Positions 50,270-63,377 of a stretch of DNA of 64,000 nt are shown piece after piece. A model generated the notes under the pieces. The model did not search any database. It worked only from the letters and a program-made list of their open reading frames with translations, and was not told the DNA's origin. Numbering within the stretch: the stretch's first letter is position 1; each line of letters begins with the position of its first letter. The stretch spans positions 266-64,265 of the forward strand of contig DASUFI010000217.1 of the NCBI GenBank assembly GCA_036274635.1, in the 5' to 3' direction. This DNA comes from Planctomycetota bacterium. GTDB lineage: Bacteria > Planctomycetota > B15-G4. The translations under genes and the position numbers were made by a program.

Positions 50270-50315
50270 CCCCCCAACCTGCCGATAAGAGGCACCCCCG
50301 TGCCTGGAGCTGAAC

Positions 50316-51446
50316 ATGACGAGCGCGACCATGAAGAAGGATGACGGTGCGAACATGAAGGACGGTGCGAACATGAAGAAGGACGACACCCGCAAGACCG
50401 ACGCGTCCGCCGACGCCGGTGACGAGGGCATCCTGTGGATCGGGATGGACCTCGGCACCTCGCGCACGGCCGTGGCGTCGAGCAACGGCGTGCGCGAGAA
50501 CAGCTACTCGCTGGTCGGCTGGCCGCGTGACGTGGTGTCGCGCAAGCTGCTGGGCGAAGGACCGCTGTTCGGCCCGGACGTGATCAAGCACCGCCTCTCG
50601 CTGAACGTCTTCCGCCCGCTCGAGGCCGGCGTGATCAAGGGCAGCGACGACGGCAAGGACGCCGAGGCCAACCTCAAGGCAGCGCAGGCCCTCGTGCGCT
50701 ACGCGATCAGCCTGGCGCGCGCCGAGAAGGACCAGCTCATCTACGCCGTCATCGGCGCGCCCGCGCAGTGCAGCATCAAGAACCGCAAGGCCATCGTCGA
50801 CGCCGTCAAGGACGAGGTCGACTCGGTCATGCTCGCCTCCGAGCCCTTCACGGTGGCCTACGGCCTCGAGAAGCTGACCGACACGCTGGTCATCGACATC
50901 GGCGCGGGCACCACGGACCTGTGCCGCATGCACGGCACGATGCCGGCCGAGGAGGACCAGATCACCAACAGCTTCGCGGGCGACTTCATCGACCGCAACT
51001 TCATCAAGCTCGTGAAGAAGAACCACCCCGAGCTGGCCTTCTCCGATCGCATGGCCACCGAGGCCAAGGAGAAGTACGCCGACGTGTCGAACAACGGCGC
51101 CAAGGCCATCGTGAAGTGGCCGGTGAACGGCAAGCCCACCGAGGTGGACCTCACCAGCGAGATGCGCGAGGCCTGCCTCTCGATCGTGCCCCCCATGGTC
51201 GAGTCGCTGCACAAGCTCATCGCCGACTTCGACCCGGAGTTCCAGGCCGTGCTGCGCGACAACGTCCTGCTGGGCGGCGGCGGCAGCCAGATCAAGGGCC
51301 TGGGCGACGCGCTGCAGGACTACATGGAGAAGCACCTGGGCGGTGGCAAGGTCATGACGGTCGAGGAGCCGGTCTACGCCGGCGCCAACGGCGCCCTCAA
51401 GATCGCGCGCGACATGCCCAAGGAATACTGGGAGCAGTTGACCTGA
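50316..51446 (+). CDS. Actin-like ATPase, MamK-like
   Basis: GGAG lies 8 nt upstream of the ATG. Actin-fold motifs are phosphate-1 ILWIGMDLGTSRTAVASS, phosphate-2 LVIDIGAGTTDLC and the adenosine motif NVLLGGGGSQIKGL. It also shows block-wise similarity to MamK as I recall it (LVGWPRDVVSRKLLG, AVIGAPAQ, ASEPFTVAYGLEKL, terminal PKEYWEQL). Confidence 0.8.
   Translation: MTSATMKKDDGANMKDGANMKKDDTRKTDASADAGDEGILWIGMDLGTSRTAVASSNGVRENSYSLVGWPRDVVSRKLLGEGPLFGPDVIKHRLSLNVFRPLEAGVIKGSDDGKDAEANLKAAQALVRYAISLARAEKDQLIYAVIGAPAQCSIKNRKAIVDAVKDEVDSVMLASEPFTVAYGLEKLTDTLVIDIGAGTTDLCRMHGTMPAEEDQITNSFAGDFIDRNFIKLVKKNHPELAFSDRMATEAKEKYADVSNNGAKAIVKWPVNGKPTEVDLTSEMREACLSIVPPMVESLHKLIADFDPEFQAVLRDNVLLGGGGSQIKGLGDALQDYMEKHLGGGKVMTVEEPVYAGANGALKIARDMPKEYWEQLT
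50343..50378 (+). repeat. Perfect in-frame 18-bp tandem duplication (GACGGTGCGAACATGAAG x2) inside the N-terminal low-complexity region of the MamK-like gene
   Basis: It was read directly. It encodes DGANMK twice and creates additional in-frame ATG codons. Confidence 0.85.
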
Positions 51447-55368: not shown

Positions 55369-56940
55369 ATGCACCCGGCTTCGGCAGAGGCGCGCGCCGA
55401 CGCCGGCCTCACCTGGCGGCGCCGCGCGCTGTACGCGCTGCTGACCCTGATGCTGTTCGCGGCGGCGCTCGAGGTCGTGCTGCGCCTGGTGGTCGCGGAC
55501 GCTCCCGGCGGCCGGTTGTCGGTCTCGCGCGGCTTCTCGCCGAACGCCGAGTACATCGTGCCCGATGCGGCCCGCCCCGGTTGGTGGCACACGCAGATGA
55601 ACGGCGCCGAGGCGCCCGAGGTCGCGGTGCCGCCCAAGGGCCGCGCGCTGCGCGTGATCATGATCGGCGGCAGCAACGTGGCCGGCTTCCAGAAGGAGCA
55701 CCTGCAGCAGACGCTGTGCGCGCAGCTGCCCAACCCGGGCTTCGAGGTGGTCAACCTCGGGCGCTCGGGCTACGGCAGCGAGCGCGAGCTCATCCTGCTC
55801 AAGCAGGCGCTCGTGCTGCAGCCGGACGTCGTGCTCATCTACTGCGGCCACAACGAGTTCGTGGAGGGCGGCTTCGCCTGGGAGCTGTCGCAGGCCTGGC
55901 GCCCGTCCGTCGTGCGCGTCGCCGACGCGCTGCTCGGCCTGCGCACGGTGAACGCGGCCGTGGACCTGCTGCGCGGAGGCGGCGAGCCGGCGCGCCTGCC
56001 CGAGGCGCGCCGCCCGCGCCGCAAGGTCTTCGACGACATGACCCCCGAGCGCGCGGCCGTCTTCTACGACGTCTTCCGCGACAACCTCGCCGCGATGGTC
56101 GGCGCCTGCCGCGCGGCCGGCGTGCGCGTGCTGCTGGCCACGGTCGTGAGCAACCTCTTCGACCCGCCCTACGTCTCCAACCCGCCCGCCGACTGGGACG
56201 AGGCGCGGCGCGCGGCGCTGGTCGCAGCCCGCGACCGCATGCTCGCGCTGGTGCCCGCGCGCCTCAGCTTCGGCCTCGTGCCCGAGGGCCCCGGCCTGCG
56301 CTGGCCGCACCCGCGCACGGAGGACTGGGGCGAGAACCTCACGCCGACCCAGCGCGACGAGCGCCGCGCGCAGGCGGGGCCGGACGTCACCGCGCCCGCG
56401 CTGCGGCCGCACGCCGGTGTGCTGGCCGCCGCGCCGTTCTGGACCGACCCGGCCCTGTGGACCCCCAAGGTCGCCGACGCGGTGGCCGCCTTCGGCCGGG
56501 TGTGCGCGCGCGAGCTCTCGGAGGACGAGCGCGTCGCGCTGCGCGCCGCGCGGTCCGCGGGCGACGAGGTGCTGGCGCTGTGCCCCGACGACCCCACCAC
56601 GCTCTACGCCCAGGGGCTGTGCACCTACATGCTGGGCGAGGACGACGCGCGCGCCGCCGCCCTGCTGCACGCGGCCGCCGCGGCCGACCGCGCGCCGACC
56701 AAGGGCAACGACCTGATCAACGCCGGCGTGCGCGAGCTGGCCGCCGCGCACGCCGCCGACGCCGGCCTGCGCTTCGTGGACACGGACGAGCTGTGGCGCG
56801 CGCGCTGCCCGCAGGGCCTGCCCGGCTACGAGGTCATGCTCGACAGCTGCCACCTGCACCCCGCGGCGCGCCTCATCCTGGTCGACGACTTCGCGCCGGC
56901 GCTCGTGGAGCTGGGCCGCCAGGCGCTCGCGGAACGCTGA
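55369..56940 (+). CDS. Membrane-anchored SGNH/GDSL-like hydrolase-fold protein, paralogue 3 of 3
   Basis: The ATG is 3 nt after the previous stop. It is collinear with paralogues 1 and 2 (GGSNVAGF, NLGRSGYGSERE, YCGHNEF, MLDSCHLH). Confidence 0.65.
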   Translation: MHPASAEARADAGLTWRRRALYALLTLMLFAAALEVVLRLVVADAPGGRLSVSRGFSPNAEYIVPDAARPGWWHTQMNGAEAPEVAVPPKGRALRVIMIGGSNVAGFQKEHLQQTLCAQLPNPGFEVVNLGRSGYGSERELILLKQALVLQPDVVLIYCGHNEFVEGGFAWELSQAWRPSVVRVADALLGLRTVNAAVDLLRGGGEPARLPEARRPRRKVFDDMTPERAAVFYDVFRDNLAAMVGACRAAGVRVLLATVVSNLFDPPYVSNPPADWDEARRAALVAARDRMLALVPARLSFGLVPEGPGLRWPHPRTEDWGENLTPTQRDERRAQAGPDVTAPALRPHAGVLAAAPFWTDPALWTPKVADAVAAFGRVCARELSEDERVALRAARSAGDEVLALCPDDPTTLYAQGLCTYMLGEDDARAAALLHAAAAADRAPTKGNDLINAGVRELAAAHAADAGLRFVDTDELWRARCPQGLPGYEVMLDSCHLHPAARLILVDDFAPALVELGRQALAER

Positions 56941-57061
56941 GCCCGAGGCGATCCGGCGCGTCCGTTCCGGCCGGGCCTTGCCGCGCGGCCCGCGTTGGGC
57001 CAGACTGCGGACCGCGCGTCACCGGACCGCGGGGCCACGGGCACGGCCCCGGAGGCGGCGC

Positions 57062-58384
57062 GTGCCTCCCATCGTCCGAGCCGTCGCCTTGAGCTCCGAA
57101 TCGTCCGCGAGTCCGCCGCCGGCCGGCACGCCGGCCGCCAAGCTCCCCGGCAAGGGCCCCGCCGTGCGCAGCGGTCCGCTGTCGGAGGTCGCCGCGGGCC
57201 TCGCACCCGGCCGCGTCTCCGGCGCCGCCGCCGTGGATCACGACGAGCAGGCCGGGCTGGTGCTGGGCGTCATCGTCCCCTGTCGCGACGAGGCGACCGT
57301 GATCGCGCGCAAGCTGCGCAACCTGGCGGCCTCGCGCTGGCCCTTCTCGCCGCGGCCGCACCAGATCGTGGTGGTGGACGACGGCAGTCGCGACGACACC
57401 TTCGAGCTGGCGACGCGGCTGTGCGCGGAGCTGTTCGCCAAGCCGGGCGGCACGACGCGCATGTCGGTGCCGGCCATCACGCACACGACGCCGGCCGCCG
57501 CGCGCGTCATCCGCAACACGGAAAGGCCCGGCAAGGCGGGCGCCCTGCGCGCCGCGATCGTTGAGCTGGGCAGCACGGTGGACCTGCTCGTGTCCACGGA
57601 CGCAGACGTCATCCTGCGCCCGACCTCGCTGCTCATGCTCGAGCCCGAGTTCCGCAGCCGCCCGGACCTGGGGATGGCCTGCGGCCGGCAGGAGCTGGTG
57701 CGCGACCTGCTGGACGACGGCAGCTGCCGCGGCGCCGACGGCCGCGAGCCGACGCTCGTCACCGAGCCGTACGACCTGTGGAGCGAGCGCTTGCGCGCCT
57801 GGGAGAGCCGGCGCGGGCGGCTGTTCTCGGTGCACGGCCAGCTGCTCGCGTGGCGCGAGCGTCTGGGGCTGTGCCCGAGCGCCGGCGCGGCCGCCGACGA
57901 CGTGGACCTCATGTTCCAGGTGCGCGCCAAGGGGCTGCGGATCGAGCTGCTGACGGGCGCGACCTTCCTCGAGGTGAAGCCGCCGCCCGGACCGGCGCGC
58001 GACGCGTGGCGGCAGCGCCGCGCACAGGCCTGGCTGGCCGCGCTGCGCGATCGCCGGACGCCGCCGGGCGCGCCGGCCTTCGACCGCTGGCAGCTGGCCG
58101 CCTACCGCCGCGCGCACGTCGTGGCGTCGCCGGCGGTGCACCTGCTGGTGACGCTGCTGCTGCTGGTCGGCTGCGCGGCCCTCGGCGCGCTGACGTGGGG
58201 CGCGCCGGCCTTCTCGCTGCCGGGCGCGCTGGCGGGCTTCGGCGTGGGCGCGCTGCTGCTGGCGCTGCTGGCGGCCTCGCCCCTGGGGCGCGGCGCGCGC
58301 GCGGCCGTGAGCCAGTGGCCGGTGCTGCGCGCGGCGCGCGCGGCGGGCGCACCCGCCGATCGCTGGGAGACTCGGCGGGGCTGA
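57062..58384 (+). CDS. Family 2 glycosyltransferase with C-terminal transmembrane region
   Basis: The GT-A motifs are GVIVPCRDEATVI, VVVDDGSRDDT and a DxD-like TDADV. The C-terminus has three or four transmembrane helices. The proposed GTG start at 57062 has GGAG 11 nt upstream but is uncertain. Confidence 0.75.
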   Translation: MPPIVRAVALSSESSASPPPAGTPAAKLPGKGPAVRSGPLSEVAAGLAPGRVSGAAAVDHDEQAGLVLGVIVPCRDEATVIARKLRNLAASRWPFSPRPHQIVVVDDGSRDDTFELATRLCAELFAKPGGTTRMSVPAITHTTPAAARVIRNTERPGKAGALRAAIVELGSTVDLLVSTDADVILRPTSLLMLEPEFRSRPDLGMACGRQELVRDLLDDGSCRGADGREPTLVTEPYDLWSERLRAWESRRGRLFSVHGQLLAWRERLGLCPSAGAAADDVDLMFQVRAKGLRIELLTGATFLEVKPPPGPARDAWRQRRAQAWLAALRDRRTPPGAPAFDRWQLAAYRRAHVVASPAVHLLVTLLLLVGCAALGALTWGAPAFSLPGALAGFGVGALLLALLAASPLGRGARAAVSQWPVLRAARAAGAPADRWETRRG

Positions 58385-58409
58385 GGCCGCCCGGCGCAGA
58401 CGCGCTGCC

Positions 58410-59735
58410 TCAGTCGGCCGCGTGCAGCAGCTCGAGAGCCTGCTGGCCGGCCAGCGTGTGCGTGAGGTCCTGCTCGCCGGGCGCCTGCACGTCCGCCCAG
58501 CCCTCCTCCACCGCGGTGACGCAGTCGATCACGGCCAGCTCGCCCTGGCGCAGGTCCACCTGCCATTCGACGCGGCGCGGTGGCGCGCCGAGCGCGCTGT
58601 CCTGCAGCGTCACGTCCACGCGGTGCGCGCCGGGCAGGAGCGGCACGCGCAGCACGCGGAACTCCGCGGGCAGCAGCGTCCAGCAACGCGTGTCGGCGGG
58701 CAGCGCCTCGGCCAGCAGCTCGCCCGTGAGGAAGCCCGCGAGGTCGGCGAGGACGTCGCGCGTGGTGTCGTGGTGGTGGTCGTCGTCGTGGCGGATGGCG
58801 CGGGCGACGGCGTCGGAGGCGAAGGCGCGCGGCACGGCGGCCACCAGCGCGGCCGCCAGCAGGCGCGGCAGCTCGTCGTCGTAGCGGCGCAGCGCCTGCG
58901 CGCCCACGTCGAGCAGCGGCACCGGCACGCCGGCGAGGGCGTCGTCCACCTCCACCTCGATGCGCGCGTAGCCGCCGGGCCGCGCCACCAGCGCCGGGAA
59001 CTGCACGCGGCGCAGGGCGTGGTCCACCCACAGCCGCACGATGGCCTGCGCGCGCACCGGGGCGCGGCCGTTCTGCACGACCACGAGCAACGAGCCCTGG
59101 CCCGCGGCGGGCGGCGACTGCAGCGCGTCGAGGGCCGACAGGCGCGCGGGGTCGTCGTGGCACAGCTCGCGCGCGGAGCGGAAGGCGTCGTCCGCCTCGC
59201 CGCGCGCCCCGGCGTGCTGCAGCGCGACGCCGGCCAGCGCCCAGATGAGCACCGAGGCGTAGCGCTCGTCGTCGGGCAGGCCGGACTGCAGCAGCAGCAC
59301 GCGCGCACGGCGCGCCTCCACCGCGGCCTCCTGCGCCTGCCCCTCCACGAGGAAGCCGAGCAGCGCCTGCGCGTTGACCAGCAGGCGTTCGAAGCGCGTG
59401 GCGCGGTAGGGCTTCGGCTCGCGCGCGAAGACCCACTCGGCCAGCGTGTCGAGCGGCGCGCGGGTGTAGTCCAGCGTCTCGAGCTCGTCGTCGGCGTCCA
59501 CCAGCAGCGCGGACGCGTCGGCGTCGCGCCCGGCGGCGACCAGCGCGGAGGCCAGCTCGAGGCGCAGGACGTCGCGGTCCGGGCTGCTGCCCTCCTCGTC
59601 GAGCCGCTGCTGCAGCATGTCCGCCGCGCGGTCGGGATGGCCGCGGTAGAAGGCGCGCTGGTACGGCTCGGCGCGCACGTTGGCCGGCGCGTAGCAGCCG
59701 GCGGTCAGCAGCAGGCCGAGCAGCGCGGCGCGCAT
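58410..59735 (-). CDS. Lipoprotein, hypothetical
   Basis: The lipobox is MRAALLGLLLTAGC. It is a 441-aa mostly helical sequence with a His-rich patch HDDDHHHD. Confidence 0.6.
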   Translation of the reverse strand: MRAALLGLLLTAGCYAPANVRAEPYQRAFYRGHPDRAADMLQQRLDEEGSSPDRDVLRLELASALVAAGRDADASALLVDADDELETLDYTRAPLDTLAEWVFAREPKPYRATRFERLLVNAQALLGFLVEGQAQEAAVEARRARVLLLQSGLPDDERYASVLIWALAGVALQHAGARGEADDAFRSARELCHDDPARLSALDALQSPPAAGQGSLLVVVQNGRAPVRAQAIVRLWVDHALRRVQFPALVARPGGYARIEVEVDDALAGVPVPLLDVGAQALRRYDDELPRLLAAALVAAVPRAFASDAVARAIRHDDDHHHDTTRDVLADLAGFLTGELLAEALPADTRCWTLLPAEFRVLRVPLLPGAHRVDVTLQDSALGAPPRRVEWQVDLRQGELAVIDCVTAVEEGWADVQAPGEQDLTHTLAGQQALELLHAAD

Positions 59736-59745
59736 GGCCGGCGGC

Positions 59746-60360
59746 TCAGTAGTTCTCCTGCTTGGTGACGTCGACGCGCGTCTGGTGCATGAGCTGCAGC
59801 GTCGCGACGTCGGTCACGCGCAGGAAGATGTGGTACTGCACGCGGCGCACGTCGTCGCTCTTCTCCGTCGTGTCCCACACGCGCCCGGCCACGAAGTACT
59901 GGATGCCGAACTCCTTGCCCAGCGCCGCGGCCGTCTCCTTGTCCACGGCGTCGCCCGCGTCGCGCAAGCGCTCGGCCAGCACGGCGTCGCGCATGATGGT
60001 CGTGTTGTCGACCACGTGGAACAGGTTCGACTGCACCAGCTGCGTCTCGGCCGCGGTCAGCAGCGTGTCCAGCGCCCCCGAGATGTGCTCGGAGGTGGCG
60101 TTCTCGAAGCTGAGGATGGCGATGCCGGGCTTGCCGGGCGGCAGGCCCTTGACGAACTCGCTGCGCGCCAGCTGGTTGACCCACTCGGCCAGCGCGAGGT
60201 CGATGTCCTTGCTGTCGAGGCGCGTGGAGAGGGCCGGGCTGTCGATCTCCGGCTCCTCGGCCGCGCGCGAGTACTCCGGCCCGGAGCAGGCGGGCAGCAG
60301 GGCCACGGCCAGGAGCAGGGCGAGCGCGACGCGCGACGGACGGCCGGTCTCAGCGCACAT
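59746..60360 (-). CDS. LpoB-like lipoprotein (penicillin-binding-protein activator LpoB fold, PF13036-like)
   Basis: The lipobox is LLAVALLPAC. The pattern IAILSFENATSE...LFHVVDNTT...GIQYFVAGRVWDTT...VQYHIFLRVTDVATLQL resembles the LpoB C-terminal domain. Its start overlaps the upstream gene by 11 nt. Confidence 0.5.
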   Translation of the reverse strand: MCAETGRPSRVALALLLAVALLPACSGPEYSRAAEEPEIDSPALSTRLDSKDIDLALAEWVNQLARSEFVKGLPPGKPGIAILSFENATSEHISGALDTLLTAAETQLVQSNLFHVVDNTTIMRDAVLAERLRDAGDAVDKETAAALGKEFGIQYFVAGRVWDTTEKSDDVRRVQYHIFLRVTDVATLQLMHQTRVDVTKQENY

Positions 60361-61000
60361 CCACCACCTCCTCGTTGGGCCGCCCCTTGATGCGCTGCAG
60401 GCAGGCCTCGGCCGCGCGCGCGGCCTCCTTGATCTCGTCGTCGCCGCCGCCCAGATAGAGCCGGCCGTAGGCGCCGAAGCTCACCACCTCGAGCAGCCGG
60501 ATGGGCGCGGCCTTCTCGGCCTCGTTGGCGCACAAGAGCGCGTAGCCGGCCGGGTGCGTCTCCATGATGTACAGCGACTGGCCCTTGAGGATGCAGTCGC
60601 CGTGCCGCATGCGGTTGATGAGCATGGTCTGGTAGGCGTCGGTGCCGGTGATGATCTCCGACGTGACCACGCGCGGCGTGAGACGATCCTCCTCGGTGAG
60701 GCCGTGGTGGCGCAGGATGGCCTCGCCCGCCGCGCGCACGTCGCCCTGGTTGAAGGAGTGCAGCTCGAGGCAGCCGAAGGCGCGCTCGACGATCTGCATG
60801 CCCGGCGTCACGGAGGCGTTCTTGAGGGCCACGTCGGTGATGCGGTTGATGGCGATGCCCGGCTGCACCTCGACCATGAGCGCGGCCTGCTCCTCGATGG
60901 GCAGGTAGCCCTGAGCCACCGTGGCCAGGAAGCTCGCGAGCTGCGGCTGCAGCACGTCGAGGAAGGTGTACGTGCGCAGCGTGACGGCGGGGCTGGCCAT
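60350..61000 (-). CDS. Tandem BMC-domain protein (BMC-T-like bacterial microcompartment shell protein), orphan
   Basis: It has two ~100-aa repeats, each matching the BMC pattern: ALMVEVQPGIAINRITDVALKNASV ... GDVRAAGEAI and GYALLCANEAEKAAPIRLLEV ... YLGGGDDEIKEAARAAEA. No other microcompartment genes are in the window. Confidence 0.5.
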   Translation of the reverse strand: MASPAVTLRTYTFLDVLQPQLASFLATVAQGYLPIEEQAALMVEVQPGIAINRITDVALKNASVTPGMQIVERAFGCLELHSFNQGDVRAAGEAILRHHGLTEEDRLTPRVVTSEIITGTDAYQTMLINRMRHGDCILKGQSLYIMETHPAGYALLCANEAEKAAPIRLLEVVSFGAYGRLYLGGGDDEIKEAARAAEACLQRIKGRPNEEVVDVR

Positions 61001-61110
61001 GCGGATTCCCGGGGAGCGGAGCGGCCCGGCATCCTAGCAGCCGAGCGCCCGCCTTTCGCCGCGCGCGCGCATCGACCCGCGACGGGGGCCGCCGCTATCA
61101 TGGCGCCCCC

Positions 61111-62079
61111 ATGCACCTCGCGCGCCGGCCGCTCTCCACCGCCGCGCTGCTGCTGGCGATCCTCGCCGGCTGCGGCGAGGAGCACCACTACGCCGTGGAC
61201 CTGCAGGGCAACGCGCGGCGCGTGGACGAGAACGGCCAGCCGTTGCCGGGCCAGCCGGAGGTCATGGCCAAGGCCGACGCCGCAAGCAGCGGCCCGCTGC
61301 AGGTCGTCGTGCAGCTCGACCCGTCGCTGGGCGTCGATCCCTCCACCTTCAAGTGCCTCTTCCTGTGGGCCTCGAACGACCCGCGCGGCATGCCCGCGGT
61401 CGTCGACAAGGTGGAGCACCCGCAGCTGCCGTTGTCGCGCACGCTCGCGCCCGGCGGCGCGCACGGCACGACGCTGTCCGGCAACTACCAGATCTTCGCG
61501 CGCCTCGACGCGGATGGCGACGCGAGCGTGCAGATGGGCGACGTCGAGGGCCTCTCGTCGAGACCGTCCGCCGCGGGCGGCCCGCCGGTGACGGTGGTGC
61601 TCACGCGCCGCGTCACGACCGAGGACCTCGCGCCGGCGCCGCAGGCCCCGGCGGCGGCCGCCGCACCCTTGGCGCCCTTCGCGGGCGGCGGCATGGCCGA
61701 CCACGCGCCGTCGCCCGAGGACCTCGCCGGCCCGCGCTTCAAGGGCCGCGTCGAGCTGGCGCCGGAGTTCGCGGCGCTGGACGGCAAGTACAGCCTGTTC
61801 ATCATCCTGCGCAGCGCGACCTCGGGCGGCATGCCGCTGGCGCCGAAGAAGGTGGAGCGCGCGCAGTTCCCGGTGGCCTTCGACATCGGCACCGAGGCCG
61901 TGGCGCTCGACGTGGACAACAAGACCGAGCTGCTCTCGGGCGAGCTCAAGGTCTACGCGCGCCTCTCGCTCTCGGGCAACCCCATCGGCCAGCCCGGCGA
62001 CATCGAGAGCGAGCCCGTGATCACGCGCGCCGGACCGGACCCCATCGTGCTGACCCTGAACAAGAAGAAGGTTCCGTGA
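61111..62079 (+). CDS. Lipoprotein with internal duplication
   Basis: The lipobox is LLAILAGC. It has two homologous halves, each ending in ...YQIFARLDADGD... / ...LKVYARLSLSGNP... Confidence 0.6.
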   Translation: MHLARRPLSTAALLLAILAGCGEEHHYAVDLQGNARRVDENGQPLPGQPEVMAKADAASSGPLQVVVQLDPSLGVDPSTFKCLFLWASNDPRGMPAVVDKVEHPQLPLSRTLAPGGAHGTTLSGNYQIFARLDADGDASVQMGDVEGLSSRPSAAGGPPVTVVLTRRVTTEDLAPAPQAPAAAAAPLAPFAGGGMADHAPSPEDLAGPRFKGRVELAPEFAALDGKYSLFIILRSATSGGMPLAPKKVERAQFPVAFDIGTEAVALDVDNKTELLSGELKVYARLSLSGNPIGQPGDIESEPVITRAGPDPIVLTLNKKKVP

Positions 62080-63377
62080 ATCCCGCCCTGGCCGCCGCGC
62101 ACCGCGCGGCCCTCATGGCTGCGATGCAGGGCGGCGTGGCCGTCGTCTGCACGGGTCCCGAGCTGATCCGCAACCGCGACACGCACTTCCGCTTCCGGCC
62201 CGACTCCGACTTCTGGTACCTGACCGCCTTCCGCGAGCCCGACGCGGTGGCCGTGCTGCGCCCCGAGGCGACGAGCGAGCGCTTCGTGCTCTTCGTGCGG
62301 CCGCGCGACCCGGAGATGGAGACCTGGAACGGCCGCCGCGCCGGCGTCGAGGGCGCCGTCGCGCACTACGGCGCGGACGCGGCCTTCCCCATCGCCGCGC
62401 TGGACAAGGAGCTGCCGCGCCTGCTCAAGGGGCACGAGCGCCTGTACACCAGCGGCGGCCGCGACCCGGCCTTCGACGCCAAGCTGCTGGGCTGGATGCG
62501 CGACAGCCATCAGCGCAGCCGCGACGGCGTGCGCTTCCCCACGCAATTCGTGGAGCTGGGCGCCGTGCTGCACGAGCTGCGGCTGATCAAGTCGGCCGAG
62601 GAGCTCGAGGTCCTGCGCCGCGCGGCCGCGCTCACCAACGACGGCCACCGCGCCGCCGGGCGCGCCGTGAAGCCGGGCGTCGGCGAGTGGGAGCTCGAGG
62701 CCGCCATCGACGGCGCCTTCCGCCGCGGCGGGGGCTGGGGCCCGGGCTACCCCTCCATCGTCGCGTCCGGCGCCAACGCCACGATCCTGCACTACAACAC
62801 CAACGAGATGCGCGTGCCCGAGGGCGCGCTGCTGCTGGTGGACGCCGGCGCCGAGACCGACGGCTACACCGCCGACGTCACGCGCTGCTACCCCTCGGGT
62901 CGCAGCTTCACGCCCGAGCAGCGCGCGCTCTACGACGTCGTGCTGCGCGCGCAGCTGGCCGCCATCGCGCAGGTGCGGCCCGGCGTGCCCTTCCATTCCG
63001 TGCACGACGTGGCGCTGCGCGCGCTGGTCGAGGGCATGATCGAGCTGGAGCTGCTGCCGCGCGGCGTGGACGCGGCCATCGAGAGCGGCGCCTACAGGCG
63101 CGTGTACATGCACCGCACCAGCCACTGGCTGGGCATCGATGTGCACGACGTCGGCGCCTACTACCAGGCCGACGGCAGCAGCCGGCCGCTGCAGCCGGGC
63201 ATGGTGCTGACGGTCGAGCCGGGCCTCTACGTCGCCGCCGACGACGAGCGCTCGCCCGAGGCCCTGCGCGGCCTCGGCGTGCGCATCGAGGACGACGTGC
63301 TCGTCACGCCCGGCGGCCACGAGGTGCTCACCGCCGCCATCCCCAAGCTGCCCGCCGAGCTGGAGGCGCTGCGGTGA
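62076..63377 (+). CDS. pepP: Xaa-Pro aminopeptidase (M24B)
   Basis: The GTG start overlaps the upstream stop (GTGA). The M24 metal ligands are in context: D..D (LLLVDAGAETDGYTADVTR), HRTSHWLGIDVHD and LTVEPGLY..E motifs. Confidence 0.85.
   Translation: MNPALAAAHRAALMAAMQGGVAVVCTGPELIRNRDTHFRFRPDSDFWYLTAFREPDAVAVLRPEATSERFVLFVRPRDPEMETWNGRRAGVEGAVAHYGADAAFPIAALDKELPRLLKGHERLYTSGGRDPAFDAKLLGWMRDSHQRSRDGVRFPTQFVELGAVLHELRLIKSAEELEVLRRAAALTNDGHRAAGRAVKPGVGEWELEAAIDGAFRRGGGWGPGYPSIVASGANATILHYNTNEMRVPEGALLLVDAGAETDGYTADVTRCYPSGRSFTPEQRALYDVVLRAQLAAIAQVRPGVPFHSVHDVALRALVEGMIELELLPRGVDAAIESGAYRRVYMHRTSHWLGIDVHDVGAYYQADGSSRPLQPGMVLTVEPGLYVAADDERSPEALRGLGVRIEDDVLVTPGGHEVLTAAIPKLPAELEALR

Follow-up and report, generated by a model that had tools for sequence, protein, structure and literature searches.

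A BMC-T(dp) shell protein gene in a lineage of Planctomycetota, probably a satellite of a distant metabolosome locus

Introduction

The shell protein CcmP is typically encoded apart from the main ccm cluster. Its pore is gated by Glu69 and Arg70 (PMC5853799), residues that, according to the 2021 BMC catalog, are universally conserved in shell proteins of the BMC-T(dp) class (PMC8217296). [quoted passage not shown] The HO type II loci, for instance, are described as complete “besides a satellite BMC-T(dp) protein”, and the protein in question from Haliangium ochraceum, Hoch_3341, is labelled “HO (sat)” and placed in the clade ccmPlike-HoT3like (PMC8217296). For MIC3, the microcompartment type of marine Planctomycetes, the catalog describes an amidohydrolase and an aldehyde dehydrogenase (AldDh) that ends in a four-cysteine domain, and its tree lists only the main-locus T(dp), with no satellite T(dp) (PMC8217296).

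Here, we examine a stretch of 64 kb of Planctomycetota DNA (hereafter, the window). A sequence-only reading had noticed in it an apparently orphan tandem-BMC shell gene that overlaps the gene for an LpoB-fold lipoprotein, and had offered two explanations, namely, a satellite shell-protein locus of the kind known in myxobacteria, or a BMC-fold protein recruited to an envelope-related role. We compared the gene, its product and its neighborhood with those of relatives, and searched the genomes of these relatives for the corresponding main loci.

Results

The shell gene occupies positions 60350..61000 on the minus strand, with the start codon ATG at 61000 and the stop codon TGA at 60352-60350 as read in the sequence, and its 216-aa product is, by exact sequence, VFY71_11615 / HEX5011037.1. 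The two BMC repeats first noticed in the sequence are confirmed by matches to PF27545 and PF00936 and by full-length matches to BMC-T(dp) structures, and the lysine-containing helices and GD..A..AA motifs are present in both. The first domain (residues ~6-104; 60689..60985, minus strand) was delimited by PF27545, the CsoS1D_N part, which the precomputed annotation places on the N-terminal half of the protein, and by the secondary structure of the model; it carries Lys60 (codon at 60821-60823) in the helix TDVALK60. The second domain (residues ~108-206; 60383..60679, minus strand), identified through PF00936, carries Lys163 (60512-60514) in the helix NEAEK163. The respective GD..AA stretches are QGDVRAAGEA and GGDDEIKEAARAAEA.

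Profile and structure comparisons place the protein in the BMC-T(dp) class. The PF00936 match covers residues 145-205 (E 2.3e-6), and the NCBIfam CcmP model (NF053796) matches residues 6-210 with an E-value of 6e-79. Among solved structures, the best match is H. ochraceum HO-3341 (5v76; E 3e-84), with HO-5816 (5v74; 4.5e-71) next, then CcmP, CsoS1D, and the RMM proteins MSM0275/0271; the alignments to 5v76, 5v74, 4ht5 and 3f56 span the full length. An AlphaFold model of the monomer (pLDDT 87.5) superimposes on 5v76 with TM 0.90/0.94 and an rmsd of 1.6 Å, at 64% sequence identity. The protein has no signal peptide, and its alignment with cytoplasmic shell proteins begins at residue 5-7. The CcmP model, the match to 5v76 and the superposition together identify it as a BMC-T(dp) protein of the CcmP/CsoS1D/HO-T3 type, that is, a protein with tandem permuted BMC domains that belongs to the gated stacked-trimer class. 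Thus, of the permuted families that the sequence-only reading had named, the CcmP side holds, whereas the PduB/EutL class is ruled out by a TM of ~0.35. Identity with the CcmP of beta-carboxysomes was rejected as well: at 264.5 bits, the protein falls short of the equivalog cutoff of 340 (NF053796), and the associated loci are aldehyde-dehydrogenase metabolosomes. Given the identity of 64% to HO-T3 and 56-57% to HO-T2, for which 5v76 and 6mzu show stacking, the window protein would be expected to form trimers that stack face to face.

The residues expected to form the gate are in place. Alignment to CcmP (5lsr) equates Glu72/Arg73 of the window protein, encoded by GAG CGC at 60782..60787 (minus strand), with Glu69/Arg70 of CcmP, at an offset of 3, and the pair is invariant in all 79 aligned relatives. 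Equally invariant (79/79) are D56, A58 and K60 in the edge helix of the first domain, and N159, E160, E162 and K163 in that of the second. In established shell structures, the edge lysines of such D/N-x-x-x-K helices mediate tiling with neighboring shell proteins. Within the close clade, 113 of the 216 positions do not vary. Of six clade relatives, five give a dN/dS of ~0.27 for the shell gene and one, L006, gives 0.45; these are rough values that lend weak support only, because extreme codon bias at 73% GC makes the synonymous distance unreliable.

In the window, the shell gene stands alone. When the 64 kb were searched by tblastn, PduA and EutN queries revealed no other shell gene, and the sole match of nine main-locus proteins of a relative was the shell gene itself. 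Accordingly, the window contains no BMC-H, BMC-P or aldehyde dehydrogenase gene, as originally claimed, nor any other main-locus gene detectable by these searches. The label “orphan” is therefore justified for the 64-kb window; it very likely fails at the level of the genome, because genomes of the same clade carry a full main locus elsewhere, far from the shell gene.

A peptide-pattern scan of one genome per species yielded 77 loci. Fourteen of these (L001-L014), labelled as Planctomycetota or Phycisphaerales metagenome-assembled genomes (MAGs) or as unclassified “bacterium”, encode proteins 76-87% identical to the shell protein and constitute the window clade; none of the 14 has a BMC-H or BMC-P gene within 10 kb of the shell gene. 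Remoter relatives (56-68% identity), from Verrucomicrobiota, Kiritimatiellia, Acidobacteriota and others, are encoded inside full loci with BMC-H and BMC-P. In a neighbor-joining tree, the window clade groups with the satellites L016, L017, L020 and L021, with Hoch_3341, and with CcmP-like proteins of cyanobacterial relatives, whereas Hoch_5816 groups with the main-locus copies, apart from the satellite copies. Main-locus copies are present as well in the MAGs of L017 (copy L028), L020 (L027) and L021 (L029); for the MAG of L016, none was found. The scan gave one match per clade MAG, which could be read as a single copy with no main locus, and this reading was abandoned once main-locus paralogues had been found in the same genomes. 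In the genomes of L009, L011 and L013, the main-locus T(dp) paralogues, 54-58% identical to the satellite copies, had escaped the scan, so that a single match per MAG does not show a single copy.

The search for main loci started from the BMC-H of L028. One match, P0145, is located on the same 5.29-Mb contig (CBDFJQ01) as the clade member L013, with the satellite at 4.31 Mb and a full main locus at 0.41-0.43 Mb that encodes an AldDh (593 aa), BMC-H, a T(dp) (209 aa), two BMC-P, BMC-T(s), a 147-aa protein, an ACT protein and a DUF711 protein. Two other pairs were linked by accession series and confirmed when the loci were read: in BQJR01, sequence04 bears the satellite and BQJR01000001 the main locus, and in JBQTIY01, they are on contigs 15 and 10, respectively. 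Thus, a full main locus was found in all three clade genomes that could be tested. For the window's own genome, the BMC-H match P0151 is HEX5011818.1, 781 accessions past the shell protein HEX5011037.1 in the same series, and the contigs bearing a protein identical to HEX5011818.1 show a full main locus. On the longest of these contigs, L087, the GC content is 72.8%, compared with the overall figure of 73.0% for the window (69-77% along the 64 kb) and 66-70% for other clade loci, and when the three clade genomes are ranked by distance, L087 gives the same order as the window's satellite gene. Judging from accession proximity, GC content and distance pattern, a main locus is very likely present in the genome from which the window derives.

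The main loci of the clade genomes lie at L081 8166-14839, L082 6136-12751, L084 6169-12492 and L087 8247-15598, and several of their features deserve separate mention. Their AldDh (567-605 aa) has a C-terminal tail of ~150 aa that is rich in P, A, G and S, of low complexity, and devoid of a four-cysteine domain; the conserved motif KPPYEGG forms its end. Farther along comes a Cys-rich protein of 126-171 aa with the N-terminal motif LITDxDV..PIVL..LTPAARDRA. The ACT and DUF711 genes close the locus in all four cases, and L028, from a Phycisphaeraceae MAG, has the same end.

Downstream of the shell gene, on the same strand, are two genes for probable lipoproteins. The first, at 59746..60360 (minus strand; ATG at 60360), encodes a 204-aa LpoB-fold protein (VFY71_11610 / HEX5011036.1), and its start overlaps the 3' end of the shell gene by 11 nt (GG ATG TGC GCT GA), exactly as had been read earlier. 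The second, at 58410..59735 (minus strand), begins 10 nt past the LpoB-like stop codon and encodes a 441-aa protein that matches TPR weakly (TPR_19, E 4e-4, under the cutoff). The region 58000-61400 contains no terminator-like site, and the shell and lipoprotein genes are probably co-transcribed in the window genome.

The description of the first neighbor as an LpoB-fold lipoprotein is borne out by the Pfam LpoB match (E 1.3e-15, covering 140 of 147 model positions) and by a signal-like N-terminus in which a hydrophobic stretch is followed by a nearly invariant Cys25; the protein is most likely exported. In structure comparisons, its model (pLDDT 82.9) best matches the C-terminal domain of LpoB (4q6l/4q6z; TM 0.69 normalised to the target), and GNA1162, CsgG and PelC match about equally well. 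The identification as LpoB proper, the activator of PBP1b, is not supported: the score against the TIGR02722 equivalog is 59 bits, below the cutoff of 110.55, and the resemblance in fold extends to GNA1162, CsgG and PelC. The close family, with 40 matches, is limited to this Planctomycetota lineage, and we judge that the protein is not part of the microcompartment. Beside the two lipoprotein genes, the segment 55372-60360 includes genes for a GDSL-like hydrolase (55372-56940) and a GT2 glycosyltransferase (56978-58384, plus strand), and the four could form an envelope or exopolysaccharide module.

The association between the shell and lipoprotein genes is loose across relatives. In 10 of the 14 clade loci, the shell gene is followed by the LpoB-like gene and then by the 441-aa gene, and tblastn adds a weak LpoB-like match in L010. 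L004, L007 and L012 lack the pair beside the shell gene, L012 having a transglutaminase-like gene in its place, and no LpoB-like or TPR lipoprotein genes are found near the satellites of the sister lineages. The 11-nt overlap is not conserved, because in relatives, by match coordinates, the spacing is mostly ~30 to ~290 nt, and ~1 kb in L005. Across the clade, the lipoprotein neighbors are 35-61% identical, compared with 76-87% for the shell gene. Most likely, the lipoprotein neighbor is a local accident of gene order.

On the other side, a divergent intergenic region of 110 nt (61001..61110, between the ORF coordinates), presumed to contain the promoter of the shell gene, has one sigma-70-like match, on the plus strand only. 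It is followed by genes, identified by Pfam matches, for a 322-aa Ig_CycH-domain protein (61111-62079, plus strand) and the Xaa-Pro aminopeptidase PepP (62076-63377, plus strand); the two genes share 4 nt and point away from the shell gene. PepP adjoins the shell gene in all 14 clade loci and is its steadiest neighbor; a functional link of PepP or Ig_CycH with the shell gene is not evident. Around the shell gene, PepP, Ig_CycH, GT2 and an actin-like gene are all syntenic in clade loci, so that the neighborhood as a whole represents inherited gene order. These neighbors, too, are missing near the satellites of the sister lineages. The actin-like gene (50289-51443, plus strand) encodes a divergent actin/MreB-like protein (PF06723, 81 bits, plus Actin and Salactin matches) and is 59-65% identical in the several clade loci in which it is syntenic.

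The satellites of the sister clade have a setting of their own: in L017 (9004-10645) and the equivalent segments of L016, L020 and L021, a short-chain dehydrogenase (SDR) gene immediately precedes the shell gene, and further conserved ORFs upstream have no Pfam match. A partner gene shared by satellite copies was considered and dropped, given that the only candidate is this upstream SDR, confined to one small clade, with nothing in common with the window.

Discussion

The results presented here make it highly probable that the shell gene of the window is a satellite BMC-T(dp) gene of a metabolosome whose main locus is located elsewhere, and that the lipoprotein genes are its chance neighbors. 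The first of the two original explanations, a satellite locus as in myxobacteria, is thus the one that prospers: HO-T3, itself encoded at a satellite locus in Haliangium, is the nearest protein of solved structure, and genomes of the clade have a distant main locus. Under this scenario, three chains would assemble into a pseudohexameric trimer, two trimers would stack face to face, and the central pore of each would be opened and closed by the conserved Glu-Arg pair. The satellite gene would serve a metabolosome, its product tiling into the shell facets beside BMC-H and letting larger metabolites or cofactors pass through its gated pore. The main locus, sited elsewhere in the genome, would supply the long-tailed AldDh, BMC-H, a second T(dp), two BMC-P, BMC-T(s), the small Cys-rich protein, and the ACT and DUF711 proteins. 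Its separate placement could let the gene be expressed independently, an idea already put forward for other satellite shell genes, and the LpoB-fold and TPR lipoprotein genes would represent an exported envelope module that came to lie downstream by chance in this lineage. We infer shell incorporation, the gating function, a main locus in the window's own genome and the lack of a functional tie to the lipoproteins.

The arrangement downstream of the shell gene nevertheless raises the question of regulatory coupling, whereby the three co-oriented genes would make up one operon, such that shell permeability and an envelope/exopolysaccharide module are induced together, with no physical interaction between the products. 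The 11-nt overlap, the 10-nt gap and the lack of a terminator-like site are compatible with such coupling, and so is the order T, LpoB-like, TPR lipoprotein, which is retained in 10-11 of the 14 clade loci despite lipoprotein identities of only 35-61%. However, the spacing varies, mostly between ~30 and ~290 nt but up to ~1 kb in L005. Moreover, L004, L007, L012 and all sister satellites lack the pair, and the synteny extends to PepP, Ig_CycH, GT2 and the actin-like gene, as plain inherited gene order would give; we consider coupling unlikely. A more explicit form, in which the satellite T(dp) gene has been captured into an operon with exported LpoB/PelC-fold and TPR lipoproteins, tying expression of the gated pore to an envelope/exopolysaccharide programme, appears very unlikely to us. 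If true, operon capture would connect the permeability of microcompartments with the cell surface through regulation, in a way not described so far.

The second of the original explanations, recruitment of a BMC-fold protein to an envelope role with the LpoB-fold lipoprotein, independent of any microcompartment, draws only on the fact that the shell gene adjoins and overlaps that of the lipoprotein and on the lack of other shell genes in the 64 kb, and it is not supported. The shell protein has no signal peptide and its supposed partners have lipoprotein-type signals, so that they would occupy different compartments; the gating pair and the edge lysines for shell function are invariant; full main loci are present in 3 of 3 testable clade genomes; and the lipoprotein genes are dispensable neighbors, the pair being missing in 3-4 of the 14 clade loci and in every sister lineage. 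Such recruitment is still less probable than operon capture. Finally, isolation from other shell genes in the window is what one would also see if the gene were a decaying, functionless remnant of a lost or fragmented BMC locus, but we find this scarcely credible for a gene with an intact reading frame, 76-87% identity within the clade while its neighbors are at 35-60%, 113 of 216 positions invariant in the clade, conserved functional residues, and a dN/dS, albeit rough, of ~0.27 against five of six clade relatives (0.45 against L006).

What does a satellite gene in this lineage add? It extends to a Planctomycetota clade the known pattern of a satellite gated BMC-T(dp) paralogue, exemplified by HO-T3 and CcmP, and in itself amounts to little beyond bookkeeping. 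That one T(dp) paralogue is found repeatedly apart from the main locus in distant phyla fits the proposal of a separate regulation that tunes shell permeability. There is also a practical lesson, namely, that a shell gene with no partners across 64 kb is no proof of orphan status. Thus, the satellite gene is of a known kind; the lineage and the main-locus variant are not covered in these terms by the 2021 catalog.

Comparison with described systems shows where the likeness ends. The LpoB-like neighbor resembles LpoB, the PBP1b activator of E. coli/Salmonella, in its Pfam match, the structure of the C-terminal domain and the lipoprotein-like N-terminus, but it is only 15-16% identical and falls below the TIGR02722 cutoff. 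Among main loci, those of the clade are closest to MIC3 of marine Planctomycetes, with which they share the phylum, an AldDh whose C-terminal extension is long and flexible, BMC-H, a CcmP-like T(dp), two BMC-P, BMC-T(s) and the order T(dp)-P-P-T(s) (PMC8217296). Unlike MIC3, the clade loci lack the four-cysteine end domain, no PF04909 amidohydrolase was seen in them, and ACT and DUF711 genes stand at the end; we therefore did not assign them to MIC3 and call them “MIC3/HO-like” only. With its AldDh tail, Cys-rich protein, ACT and DUF711, the clade main locus is a variant for which the 2021 catalog gives no such description.

The shell protein itself shares with CcmP of beta-carboxysomes and CsoS1D of alpha-carboxysomes the tandem permuted BMC domains, the stacked-trimer class and the Glu/Arg gate, at 45-51% identity and TM ~0.87-0.90. 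By contrast, no carboxysome genes accompany the window-type gene, the linked locus being an aldehyde-dehydrogenase metabolosome, and a pocket residue differs, with Leu21 in the window protein in place of His18 in CcmP. The closest counterpart is HO-T3 (Hoch_3341, 5v76). Its host belongs to Myxococcota and the window host to Planctomycetota, the genomic neighbors differ, and the main locus of the window clade has another enzyme set, with the AldDh of the long low-complexity tail, ACT and DUF711. Nevertheless, the two proteins agree in class, length and the Glu-Arg gate, with 64% identity over 203 residues and TM 0.90/0.94, they belong to the same super-clade in the neighbor-joining tree, and each has a lone gene whose main locus, very likely present in the window genome too, lies elsewhere and includes a second, remoter T(dp) paralogue.
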